Positions 8,480 through 10,939 of a stretch of 32,000 nt of DNA are shown piece after piece. Under the pieces are notes generated by a model. It had not been told where the DNA came from. It searched no databases and saw only the letters and a list, made by a program, of their open reading frames with translations. The stretch comes from Halalkalibacterium halodurans. GTDB lineage: Bacteria > Bacillota > Bacilli > Bacillales > Bacillaceae_D. Positions within the stretch are counted from its first letter, which is position 1; each line of letters opens with the position of its first letter. The stretch covers positions 30,001 through 62,000 of the forward strand of contig NZ_SNUY01000007.1 in the NCBI RefSeq assembly GCF_004376175.1. Direction: 5' to 3'. The position numbers and the translations under genes are program-made.

Positions 8480-10939
8480 ATGAAACGTTATCTCATCATC
8501 TTGACAATTATCGTCATCGCCATCGTCCTTTGGTTTATCACGAATAACGATGAAGAAATTGAACAGGAGCCTCCAGAAACACCGCCGGAAGAAGAGCCAA
8601 TCGATGGAGTGGCCGCCCTATGGTCATTTGACGAAGGTTCTGGCCACACGACCGTTGAATCTCGCTCCGAACAAGAACATGACATTCATTATGTTTTTAA
8701 CGAAGCCGTTGATAAACCGAATAGTGAGCCTCTTTGGAGAAACGGGATTTCGGGACACGCGCTACTGTTTGACGGCTATTCCACATGGATATCAGCTGAT
8801 GCCTCTACCCTTGACCTTCCCGAAGGTTCCTTGACACTAGAAGCTTGGGTCGCTCCTCGTGCCTTTGAATGGGGAAACGACGACAAGCTTTCTTCCATCG
8901 TGAGTTTTCATGATAAAGAAGAGAAACAAGGCTTCCAACTAGGGGTGTTTCGTCACGGAACGTGGTCATTCCAATTTGGGACAGGCAAGGAATGGTTTGA
9001 AGTATGGGCAGAGGAAGAATTTAGCCTTCCGCACAACGAATGGTCCCATATCGTCGCTGTACTGTCTATGGAAACGAACGAGGTCGTCCTATATCGTAAT
9101 GGTGAGCGGGCAGGCCATTTAGTCATTCCGCCTGAGGTAACGATCGAATTCCCAGATGAAGAGCTTCGAATTGGTAAAAACAATGCCCCCGCAAACATTA
9201 GCGACACATTCGATGCGAGTATGTTTAATGGCCTGATTGATGAGGTTGCGGTATATGAAACGGCGCTGGATCAACCGATAGTCGAGGAGCGTTTCAGCGA
9301 ATATGCTGCTGAGGGGCTCCCTGACCCTAGCGAGGAACTTGCTTGGGATCGCAGCCGGTATGAAGGGGATCGTCACCGGCCACAGTACCATTTCACCGCT
9401 CCAGAGCACTGGATGAACGAGCCTCATGCTCCGCTCTATTTTAATGGTCAATACCATTTATTCTATCAATTCAACCCAGCGGGACCTTATTGGGGGAACA
9501 TTCATTGGGGACATGCAGTGAGTGACGATCTGATTCACTGGCAAGACTTGCCGATCGCCTTAGCGCCGGAAGCCGATCAAGTGGATCCCGATGGCTCTTG
9601 GTCTGGGGACAGCGTGATTGATGAGGACGGTAACCCTGTTTTATTGTTTACGGCAGGGAACGACAGCATGACACCTAATCAAATGATCGGCTTAGCCAGA
9701 AGTACGTATTTAGAAGAACAAGACCATGAGTTAATCCATTGGATGAAACACCCAGAGCCTGTTGTCATGCAAGAAGAATTTGAGACCGATCGAGGGGTGG
9801 TATGGCATGGGCAGTTTCGTGATCCATTCGTGTTCAGATCTGGAGATCAATGGGTTCAGCTCGTTGGCTCTGGCATCAAAGACGGAGATGAGCCTGTCGG
9901 TGGCACCGCCCTCGTATACACATCAGATGATTTGGTGCATTGGGAATATCAACATCCGCTCATGATTGGCGATGTCCATGCCTATCCAGAAACGGGTCAT
10001 GTGTGGGAGCTCCCTGTTATGCTACCCATTGGTGAAGACGAGCAGGGAGACGAAAAGCATGTATTCCTCATCAACCCTTGGTTTGATGGCGAGAGCGAGC
10101 ATGCGGTGAAATATGTTTGGTACTGGATTGGCTCGTGGGATGAAGACACTTCTCAATTTATACCTGATCAAGAAGAGCCGCAGCTGTTAGATGTTGGCGA
10201 GCATTTCACAGGACCGAGCGGCATGGTAGATGAAGAAGGGCGATCGATCCTATTTTCGATTACGCAAGATAAACGAACAGAGGAAAGTCGTTATCAGGCA
10301 GGCTGGGCTCATAATGCCGGTCTCCCTCTCGTCCTATCCTTGCGTGACGGTCACCGTTTAGGAGTAGAGCCAATCCCTGAAGTGGAACAATTACGTGAGG
10401 AGCGGTTGTTTTCTCTCGAAGGTCCTACTTCAATTGAGGAAGCGAATCATCAATTGGAAGGGATTCGTGGAGACATGTTGGAAATCGAATTGACCCTCGA
10501 CAGAAAAGACGCGCACAAAGCAGGAATTTACGTTCGTCAATCACCAGATCGGGAGGAAGAAACGTTACTTTTTTACGATTTTGCCGAACAGACATTAAAT
10601 GTGGACCGAGAACGTTCTAGTTTATCAGACGAGGTAGAAAAAGGCATTCAAGGAGGTCATGTTGAGATCGATGGCGACCTTTTAAGGCTACGTATTTTTC
10701 TTGACCGCTCCATGGTTGAGGCTTATGTTAATAGCGTAAACAGCTTAACCACTCGCGTCTATCCGACGAAAAAAGACGCGCTCTCCTTAGAGCTATTTTC
10801 TGAAGGAGAAGCCGAAGTAAAGTCGATGCACGTATGGCGACTAAGTAGTGCTTTTAATACTCGATCTAAAGAAAAGTCTGACCCCCATGCCCATATGACG
10901 GCAGGCGAGGTCAGACTTTTATATTGCACGAAGATTTAG
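8480..10939 (+). CDS. Membrane-anchored LamG-domain GH32 fructanase or fructotransferase (Glu-nucleophile, endo-inulinase-like motif spelling)
   Basis: N-terminal TM anchor (YLIILTIIVIAIVLWFI) and an acidic Pro-rich linker. A LamG/ConA-like domain follows (LLFDGYSTWI...LTLEAWVAPRAF...LYRNG...FNGLIDEVAVYETAL). The GH32 motifs are RPQYHF, HWMNEPHAP (Glu codon 9419-9421), FRDPFVF and VWELPVML. The C-terminal GH32 beta-sandwich reads LRIFLDRSMVEAYVN. It occupies the levB-like position downstream of sacB. Confidence 0.88.
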   Translation: MKRYLIILTIIVIAIVLWFITNNDEEIEQEPPETPPEEEPIDGVAALWSFDEGSGHTTVESRSEQEHDIHYVFNEAVDKPNSEPLWRNGISGHALLFDGYSTWISADASTLDLPEGSLTLEAWVAPRAFEWGNDDKLSSIVSFHDKEEKQGFQLGVFRHGTWSFQFGTGKEWFEVWAEEEFSLPHNEWSHIVAVLSMETNEVVLYRNGERAGHLVIPPEVTIEFPDEELRIGKNNAPANISDTFDASMFNGLIDEVAVYETALDQPIVEERFSEYAAEGLPDPSEELAWDRSRYEGDRHRPQYHFTAPEHWMNEPHAPLYFNGQYHLFYQFNPAGPYWGNIHWGHAVSDDLIHWQDLPIALAPEADQVDPDGSWSGDSVIDEDGNPVLLFTAGNDSMTPNQMIGLARSTYLEEQDHELIHWMKHPEPVVMQEEFETDRGVVWHGQFRDPFVFRSGDQWVQLVGSGIKDGDEPVGGTALVYTSDDLVHWEYQHPLMIGDVHAYPETGHVWELPVMLPIGEDEQGDEKHVFLINPWFDGESEHAVKYVWYWIGSWDEDTSQFIPDQEEPQLLDVGEHFTGPSGMVDEEGRSILFSITQDKRTEESRYQAGWAHNAGLPLVLSLRDGHRLGVEPIPEVEQLREERLFSLEGPTSIEEANHQLEGIRGDMLEIELTLDRKDAHKAGIYVRQSPDREEETLLFYDFAEQTLNVDRERSSLSDEVEKGIQGGHVEIDGDLLRLRIFLDRSMVEAYVNSVNSLTTRVYPTKKDALSLELFSEGEAEVKSMHVWRLSSAFNTRSKEKSDPHAHMTAGEVRLLYCTKI
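10872..10920. terminator. Bidirectional intrinsic terminator shared by the two convergent fructan gene blocks
   Basis: AAAAGTCTGACC-(25 nt)-GGTCAGACTTTT forms a 12-bp stem including A/T tracts, followed by atatt. Read on the minus strand it is followed by TTTTCTTT. It lies inside the last ~70 nt of ORF 8480..10939 and 57 nt beyond the stop of the convergent giant gene. Confidence 0.65.

Follow-up and report, generated by a model that had tools for sequence, protein, structure and literature searches.

The closest described counterparts of the enzymes treated here are fructan-active members of glycoside hydrolase family 32 (GH32). The endo-inulinase EnIA of Arthrobacter sp. S37, EC 3.2.1.7, is encoded by a 2439-bp gene of 812 codons; its E323A and E519A variants lose kcat and its D460A variant is inactive (PMC5984348), and residues N322, Q339, and R459 bind substrate according to the passage of PMC7545266 that cites Kim et al. 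2008. The cycloinulo-oligosaccharide fructanotransferases (CFTases, EC 2.4.1.243) of Paenibacillus macerans and Bacillus circulans combine GH32 with the binding module CBM38. The fungal INU2 (3RWK/3SC7), an endo-inulinase from Aspergillus ficuum, carries the motif WMNEP with Glu43 as nucleophile, and EV replaces EC at the acid/base residue; because its E43D variant leaves about 5% of the activity, the longer side chain matters. We analyzed a 32,000-nucleotide window of the Halalkalibacterium halodurans genome (assembly GCF_004376175.1, contig NZ_SNUY01000007.1, positions 30,001 to 62,000) that encodes three GH32 modules in which a Glu stands at the nucleophile motif (WxNEP), each preceded by a LamG domain. 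Judging from their sequences, the three modules are probably inulin-directed endo-enzymes of the EnIA/CFTase-type subfamily.

The GH32 proteins and modules of the window, with lengths in amino acids (aa), are as follows.
8480-10939, plus strand: LamG-GH32 protein of the Glu type, 819 aa (Pfam, motif mapping, HMMER alignment)
10977-17174, minus strand: 2065-aa multi-module protein (Pfam, BLAST of segments)
13305-14012, minus strand: LamG domain of the 2065-aa protein
11784-13262, minus strand: Glu-type GH32 module of the 2065-aa protein, with HWQNEPGGP, FRDPF, and VWELP
11784-14012, minus strand: the LamG plus Glu-type GH32 unit of the 2065-aa protein
15540-16994, minus strand: N-terminal exo-type GH32 module of the 2065-aa protein, with WMNDPNG/WEC
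17278-19560, minus strand: LamG-GH32 protein of the Glu type, 760 aa, no signal peptide
23987-25510, minus strand: exo-type GH32 protein, 507 aa, with WMNDPNG and WECP, no signal peptide

All three LamG-linked modules had been predicted to share the Glu motif, FRDPF, and VWELP, and translation with motif mapping confirmed every coordinate. The 819-aa protein has HWMNEPHAP with Glu314 (codon 9419-9421), FRDPF with Asp448 (9821-9823), and VWELP with Glu510 (10007-10009). The corresponding residues are Glu1323 (HWQNEPGGP, codon 13206-13208), Asp1452, and Glu1517 in the second GH32 module of the 2065-aa protein, and Glu290 (HWMNEPHAP, codon 18691-18693), Asp420, and Glu478 in the 760-aa protein. 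Membership in GH32 is clear from Pfam (PF00251 and PF08244, E values of 1e-62 to 1e-147), and Pfam likewise bore out the claim that LamG always comes first, placing Laminin_G_3 directly upstream of Glyco_hydro_32N and 32C in all three proteins. Both exo-type modules (the 507-aa protein and the one at the N-terminus of the 2065-aa protein) retain NWMNDPNG and WEC, as had also been proposed.

Alignment to solved GH32 structures using HMMER placed WMNEP on the WINDP nucleophile, FRDP on FRDP, and WELP on the LECP acid/base motif, so that the triads E314/D448/E510, E1323/D1452/E1517, and E290/D420/E478 align with those of 7VCO and 3PIG. This agrees with the earlier assignment of the Glu to the nucleophile position, and the Glu of WxNEP is very likely the nucleophile itself. 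The LamG plus GH32 paralogs are 43-49% identical to one another and 23-29% identical to the exo-type modules. Since the modules are paralogs and the motif is fixed across a homologous clade, the shared Glu is not a chance occurrence.

The extent of that conservation was apparent in a set of 235 homologues, consisting of the 120 best for the 819-aa protein and 115 more retrieved with the 2065-aa protein. The Glu was present in all 235, nearly always together with WELP. Among the 120 homologues of the 819-aa protein, 116 have HWMNEP (the remainder are one-residue variants or a fragment), 119 have WELP, and nearly all contain PF13385. The clade spans Bacillota, Actinomycetota, Bacteroidota, and haloarchaeal plasmids, and it separates as a whole (monophyletic) from the exo-type modules in a neighbor-joining tree drawn without bootstraps. 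Sub-clades can be told apart by motif: HWMNEPHA includes the 819- and 760-aa proteins, HW[Q/G]NEPGG includes the Glu module of the 2065-aa protein, NWMNE[A/S]HAP consists of large Paenibacillus proteins, and the Bacteroidota have the variant NWTNEPHG. A scan of 185,579 species genomes found 506 loci matching two motif patterns of the family. The LamG/Glu family makes up a GH32 subfamily that is large, conserved, and spread over Bacteria and haloarchaea, marked by LamG, W-x-N-E-[P/A/S], and WELP.

Haloarchaeal megaplasmids encode members with HWMNEPHA and WELP. Plasmid pHTUR01 of Haloterrigena turkmenica (locus L087; genes at 11974-14238 and 17428-21642) carries a cytoplasmic LamG-GH32 protein with HWMNEPHA/WELP and a 1404-aa fusion of Glu-type and Asp-type GH32 modules. 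This fructan locus is of the same design as those in bacilli.

The fungal enzyme is not specially close to this family. In the HMMER comparison, 3RWK scored an E value of 1.5e-35, compared with 2.8e-60 for the Asp-type 7VCO and 2e-47 for 3PIG, and it ranked about 16th to 20th among solved relatives (20th by Foldseek). INU2 shares WMNEP and a residue other than Cys after the acid/base Glu with the modules described here, but it has no LamG and shows no specific relatedness beyond WMNEP. The Asp-to-Glu change thus arose at least twice in endo-inulinase lineages, and the Glu of INU2 is convergent with that of these modules instead of reflecting shared ancestry. The better scores against Asp-type enzymes would also suit a reading in which the Glu arose separately, Glu and EL are neutral lineage markers, and the modules are exo-fructosidases of the usual kind, with LamG serving for binding alone. 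We consider this very improbable. Across phyla and domains of life the Glu is invariant, the low activity of INU2 E43D indicates that side-chain length matters, and EnIA is experimentally endo-acting. In addition, a separate exo-type GH32 was present in all 80 loci for which gene context was counted (22 from Bacillaceae and 58 actinobacterial), which argues for a non-redundant role of the Glu-type enzymes.

The literature agreed that a Glu serves as nucleophile in both INU2 (Glu43) and the Arthrobacter endo-inulinase, where mutagenesis identified Glu323. By published residue numbers, N322/E323/Q339/R459/D460/E519 of EnIA correspond to N313/E314/Q330/R447/D448/E510 of the 819-aa protein, with offsets of +9, +9, +9, +12, +12, and +9. 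With its nucleophile at position 323 of 812 residues, EnIA must therefore have an N-terminal extension of ~300-310 residues, as does the 819-aa protein. The two enzymes are alike in the Glu nucleophile within WMNE, the RDP Asp, the Glu acid/base, an N-terminal domain of ~300 residues (~310 aa), and an overall length of ~810 aa (812 versus 819 aa). Because its residue positions imply the same architecture, EnIA likely belongs to the LamG/Glu clade, an assignment drawn from published residue numbering and not from a sequence alignment. The 80 best genome matches included no locus from Arthrobacter.

Names assigned automatically by NCBI provide independent but weaker support for the identity of the clade. 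Those named "endo-inulinase" include HCT76620.1 and HCU50243.1 (Micromonosporaceae) as well as NGM81713.1 and NJJ41548.1 (Paenibacillus apii, HWQNEPGG sub-clade), and OZQ65268.1 (Paenibacillus taichungensis, NWMNEAHAP sub-clade) is named "cycloinulo-oligosaccharide fructanotransferase". Most likely, the subfamily is that of EnIA and the Paenibacillus CFTases. The original prediction of endo-acting or transferase-type enzymes is supported and agrees with these known members; its further suggestion of an undescribed specificity is probably overtaken by EnIA, through which the clade appears, from the published residue numbers, to be characterized already. EnIA itself differs in being a secreted actinobacterial enzyme, whereas here there are three paralogs, predicted to be anchored, secreted and multi-module, and cytoplasmic, respectively, one of them linked to GH68 genes.

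An AlphaFold2 model of the 819-aa protein, built from a 90-sequence alignment, had a mean predicted local distance difference test score (pLDDT) of 92 and a predicted template modeling score (pTM) of 0.87. In the model, a transmembrane helix or anchor (residues 2-22) is followed by an acidic, disordered linker, the jelly-roll of LamG (~44-260), a helical linker, the five-bladed propeller (~300-630) with Glu314 at the start of its first strand, a β-sandwich (639-788), and a disordered tail (795-819). Foldseek matched it to GH32 structures with a template modeling score of ~0.8 on the target and ~0.5 when normalized on the query, and no solved structure among the Foldseek matches covers LamG plus GH32. 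The 819-aa protein is deposited identically as H. halodurans TES56774.1, and its best match in the database search is 99% identical. Its open reading frame extends 27 codons (10859-10939) beyond the 792-aa protein of other H. halodurans strains, which ends in WRLSSAF. Disorder is predicted for this extra tail (pLDDT < 50), and only 38 bases separate its end from the stop codon of the 2065-aa gene, which is convergent.

Modeled alone, LamG had a pLDDT of 96. Its closest structural match was domain 4 of the Geobacillus GH43 endo-arabinanase AbnA, which was solved with ligand, followed by lectin-like domains of clostridial neurotoxins and a trans-sialidase. The proposal that LamG is the constant partner of the Glu-type module held; the proposal that it supplies polymer binding fits the best structural match, a polysaccharide-binding domain, without being proven by it. 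As a ConA-like jelly-roll, LamG may take part in glycan binding or extend the cleft. The N-terminal domain of EnIA was reportedly found in a 2005 study to be needed for catalysis. By sequence, the only PDB match to LamG was an S-layer protein domain (E = 6e-4). A CBM66-like identity was considered and rejected: there was no sequence match to B. subtilis CBM66, and CBM66 fell outside the top 50 structural matches.

Directly upstream of the 819-aa gene, and in the same orientation, lie two GH68 genes, which form a plus-strand unit with it in the order GH68a, GH68b, 819-aa enzyme.
5744-7051, plus strand: GH68 fructansucrase a (GH68a), predicted to be secreted (Pfam PF02435), first gene of the putative GH68-GH68-819-aa operon
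7074-8402, plus strand: GH68 fructansucrase b (GH68b; Pfam), 55% identical to GH68a

The start of GH68b is most likely the ATG at 7074, which has GGAGG upstream and agrees with WP_134228880.1; the mechanical open reading frame start at 7014 is probably too early. The best solved relative of both enzymes was 7BJ4/7BJ5/7BJC, with E values of 3.6e-100 for GH68a and 2.4e-120 for GH68b. Next came Gram-negative levansucrases (~1e-79 for GH68a and ~1e-73 for GH68b) and then B. subtilis SacB (~1e-27 to 1e-35). We take 7BJ4/7BJ5 to be the enzyme of Halalkalicoccus jeotgali. The H. jeotgali GH68 enzyme is listed as a characterized inulosucrase through a reference cited in PMC8066391, and 7BJ5 has been used as an inulosucrase structure (PMC11876013). 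GH68a and GH68b also fall in a group of haloarchaeal and halophilic-bacillus GH68 enzymes proposed as an inulosucrase subfamily, with S. agaradhaerens InuO, Pontibacillus, and Bacillus sp. SB49 a/b among its examples (PMC8066391). According to a citing paper, the S. agaradhaerens GH68 enzymes FosA and InuO make inulin-type fructo-oligosaccharides and inulin. GH68a and GH68b are thus probably inulin-type enzymes. The proposed inulosucrase marker HX(H/F)T (PMC8066391) was set aside as not discriminating, being present in GH68a (HEFT330), absent from GH68b, and present in a Brenneria levansucrase (HKFT).

The pairing with GH68 is particular to one branch of the family. GH68 genes occurred in 5-6 of the 22 Bacillaceae loci and in essentially none of the 58 actinobacterial loci (one weak 25% match, at L057). 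Because GH68 is so rare across the family, the linkage belongs to the 819-aa orthogroup rather than to the Glu motif. Three other genera have orthologues of this protein, 66-77% identical, always beside GH68 genes: three complete GH68 genes adjoin the Halalkalibacter orthologue, two adjoin that of Gracilibacillus, and a fused double GH68 plus one more adjoin that of Paenibacillus tarimensis. A phosphotransferase system EIIBC gene and a CAT_RBD/PRD antiterminator gene are nearby in Gracilibacillus and P. tarimensis. This arrangement resembles sacB-levB of B. subtilis, B. licheniformis, and Priestia, in which the gene for a secreted GH68 is paired with one for an endo-acting GH32 that works on the polymer so made. 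It differs in that LevB, an Asp-type GH32 of ~520 aa, has no LamG, and in that the GH68 genes here are inulosucrase-like and duplicated.

The sacB-levB likeness bears on the substrate. The original prediction had favored levan, and GH68 adjacency in 4 of 4 genomes examined, as LevB adjoins SacB, would suit a family of levan-specific endo-levanases in which all Glu/LamG enzymes, or the 819-aa orthogroup at the least, cut the β-(2→6) levan of the adjacent GH68s, a new specificity. Pfam calls PF02435 "Levansucrase/Invertase", and "Levansucrase" is also the molecule name in the PDB; it is difficult to predict what a GH68 enzyme makes, the HX(H/F)T marker does not discriminate, and CBM38, for which repeats in the 2065-aa protein are candidates, binds levan too. 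Nevertheless, a levan specificity seems unlikely. The nearest characterized GH68 is an inulosucrase, ahead of levansucrases by 20-45 orders of magnitude in E value, and the halophilic-bacillus/haloarchaeal group includes proven inulin makers. The levan-acting GH32 enzymes, moreover, use Asp and are distant: LevB-type endo-levanases of EC 3.2.1.65, BT1760 (Asp62), and levan fructotransferase (D54N structures, taken to mark the nucleophile). LevB1 (9H8I) reached an E value of only 9e-20, far below other GH32 enzymes, so the modules have neither the Asp nucleophile nor the close similarity to LevB/LevB1 of the LevB type. The characterized Glu-type GH32 enzymes that we found, INU2 and EnIA, are both inulin endo-enzymes. 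Hence, the evidence runs against levan, and the three enzymes are most likely new members of an already studied bacterial endo-inulinase family and act on inulin rather than levan.

The 2065-aa protein contains, in order, a signal peptide, the exo-type GH32, repeats R1-R3, LamG plus the Glu-type GH32, Big_2, R4, and a Lys-rich tail.
14034-15464, minus strand: R repeats, three copies (~150 aa each)
11547-11768, minus strand: Big_2 domain
11067-11510, minus strand: fourth R repeat
10977-11060, minus strand: Lys-rich tail with two Cys, SECSKKAKKDKKGKKSKARECNE

Its true start is most likely the ATG at 17120, in agreement with a 2047-aa database protein, and the mechanical start at 17174 is probably too early. 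The signal peptide suggests that the protein is secreted, and the Lys-rich C-terminal tail could be a cell-surface retention segment. The four R repeats, each ~150 aa long (R1-R3 at aa 571-1047 and R4 at aa 1889-2036), are 47-48% identical by BLAST of segments and follow the pattern NPxFETGDLTGW...GHINxDD. No Pfam family and no PDB sequence relative was found for them. The same repeats lie immediately upstream of LamG in 73 of the 80 related loci, and they recur in proteins named "endo-inulinase". They also occur in the CFTase-named protein P0265, with two or three copies N-terminal and one C-terminal, to which the repeats of the 2065-aa protein are 30-61% identical. The segment that defines CBM38 spans residues 32-389 in the CFTase of P. 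macerans and is described as two β-sandwiches that bind inulin and levan (PMC10076258). Since the repeats are shared with a CFTase-named protein and placed where CBM38 lies in the P. macerans CFTase, the R repeat is a good candidate for a CBM38.

This architecture raises the prospect of a transferase. On that reading at least one module, with that of the 2065-aa protein as the foremost candidate, would transfructosylate intramolecularly like CFTase and yield cyclofructans or other anhydro or cyclic products. The clade has a cluster with a CFTase-named member that shares the ~150-aa repeats, and the 2065-aa protein without its exo module has a CFTase-like order of repeats, LamG, GH32, and C-terminal repeat. 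A cytoplasmic homologue in Cohnella hashimotonis (L082) is encoded directly downstream of a GH172 gene (8312-9964). GH172 is a family of difructose-dianhydride synthases and hydrolases, and this adjacency hints that some LamG-GH32 members handle anhydro-fructose products. The catalytic modules here, however, lie outside the CFTase-named sub-clade, having HWMNEPHA or HWQNEPGG and not NWMNEAHAP. In the tree, the HW[Q/G]NEPGG "endo-inulinase" sub-clade takes in the Glu module of the 2065-aa protein, which is 65% identical to P. apii P0267 ("endo-inulinase") versus 47% to the CFTase-named protein. Its fusion to an exo-fructosidase module, which CFTases lack, fits complete hydrolysis better, and a profile search with the NWMNEAHAP sub-clade returned no named CFTase. 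Transferase activity is therefore distinctly unlikely, and an endo-inulinase remains the preferred reading for the 2065-aa module.

The remaining genes of the locus are consistent with uptake and use of fructan fragments.
26574-27581, minus strand: LacI-family regulator, which with PfkB heads the catabolic gene string
25514-26506, minus strand: PfkB sugar kinase
19734-23942, minus strand: ATP-binding cassette (ABC) importer set (Pfam)
22007-22966 and 22920-23942, minus strand: two ABC permeases
21368-21979, minus strand: DUF624 membrane protein
19734-21338, minus strand: ABC solute-binding protein
4089-4862, minus strand: MerR-family protein with two MerR helix-turn-helix matches, divergent from the GH68 operon

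The minus-strand string runs LacI, PfkB, exo-GH32, the two permeases, DUF624, binding protein, 760-aa enzyme, and 2065-aa enzyme, and the ABC importer/DUF624 set also flanks homologues in other genera. At the DNA level, this catabolic half (10935-27673) shares 87-94% identity with a locus of Salipaludibacillus agaradhaerens (CP058292.1, L088), a species of another genus; that locus lacks only the PfkB gene (25514-26506 here), and the likeness ends where the 2065-aa gene does. Such a pattern suggests that the fructan locus was transferred horizontally in recent times. As S. agaradhaerens is the species whose FosA and InuO yield inulin-type products, the likeness also favors inulin as the substrate. 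The 90%-identity cluster of the 760-aa protein contains S. agaradhaerens proteins. Between the binding-protein and 760-aa genes, the spacer (19642-19746) is 87% identical to L088 18638-18743, which lies just downstream of the giant gene there; it is apparently a small intergenic element that has been repeated or moved.

The 760-aa protein is predicted to be cytoplasmic from its absent signal peptide. A hydrophobic N-terminus is missing from it and from 58 of 61 short-form homologues and is present in 23 of 28 long forms; by this measure, about two thirds of the single-module members appear to be cytoplasmic. A Fictibacillus locus consists only of LacI, an ABC importer, PfkB, an exo-GH32, a cytoplasmic LamG-GH32, and DUF624. 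Because it holds just importer, kinase, and GH32 genes apart from the regulator and DUF624, the cytoplasmic class probably acts on imported oligosaccharides.

Several points weigh against inulin-directed endo-action by all three modules. Endo-activity on a polymer makes less sense for cytoplasmic members, the product specificity of GH68 enzymes cannot be read reliably from sequence, with mispredictions a known hazard (PMC8066391), and both levan and inulin are reported ligands of CBM38. The placement of EnIA and CFTase in the clade, in turn, draws on residue numbers, gene length, and automated names. In another reading the clade is not uniformly endo-inulinase: the 819-aa orthogroup would be specific for the polymer of its own GH68s, and the cytoplasmic class may act on imported oligosaccharides or on difructose anhydrides in a way not yet described. 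We regard such a mixed clade as improbable. If it were true and the GH68 polymer were levan or a mixed-linkage fructan, the 819-aa enzyme would be the first Glu-nucleophile endo-levanase.

Under the favored assignment to inulin-directed endo-enzymes, the modules would act as retaining β-fructofuranosidases. From GH32 chemistry, Glu314, Glu1323, or Glu290 would attack C2 of the fructosyl unit at subsite -1, with the RDP Asp holding fructose hydroxyls and the WELP Glu serving as acid/base, and internal β-(2→1) bonds of inulin-type fructan would be cut. The secreted 2065-aa protein, with its exo and endo modules and four candidate inulin-binding repeats, would depolymerize external fructan, and the ABC system would import the resulting oligosaccharides. 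Their breakdown to fructose, for phosphorylation by PfkB, would then be completed by the 760-aa enzyme in the cytoplasm together with the exo-type 507-aa enzyme, under regulation of the catabolic set by the LacI-family protein. The putatively membrane-anchored 819-aa enzyme, presumably co-transcribed with the two inulosucrase-type GH68 genes, would trim or recycle their polymer, as an inulin counterpart of sacB-levB.

Current understanding of GH32 catalysis is not overturned by this locus. Modestly new are the 819-aa orthogroup beside GH68, a putative operon of inulosucrase-type enzymes and an anchored endo-inulinase-like enzyme, and the large, apparently cytoplasmic class. The pairing suggests that inulin-making bacteria carry a dedicated trimming enzyme, as levan makers do. 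Also worth keeping are the joining of an exo module to a repeat architecture like that of CFTase and the lack of a solved LamG-GH32 structure. Endo-inulinases and CFTases are used to make prebiotic inulo-oligosaccharides and cyclofructans, and structural knowledge of them comes nearly all from one fungal enzyme; the bacterial Glu/LamG family is very large, reaches haloarchaea, and includes forms predicted to be secreted, anchored, or cytoplasmic. Coming from alkaliphiles and halophiles, these enzymes may interest enzyme developers. A literature search on fructan enzymes of H. halodurans turned up no reports.

A search for Rfam elements (e.g., antiterminator targets) across the window found none, and a promoter and terminator scan did no better than on shuffled sequence. 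An 880-base non-coding gap separates the MerR-family gene from the GH68 operon. A MerR gene adjoins LamG-GH32 genes in Cohnella too (L082 7366-8196), and the MerR-family protein here may be a locus-specific regulator. Within the long gap upstream of GH68a, at 5253-5280, lies a perfect 10-bp inverted repeat with an 8-base loop (GGTTGCAAAG...CTTTGCAACC), which could be an operator or a terminator.

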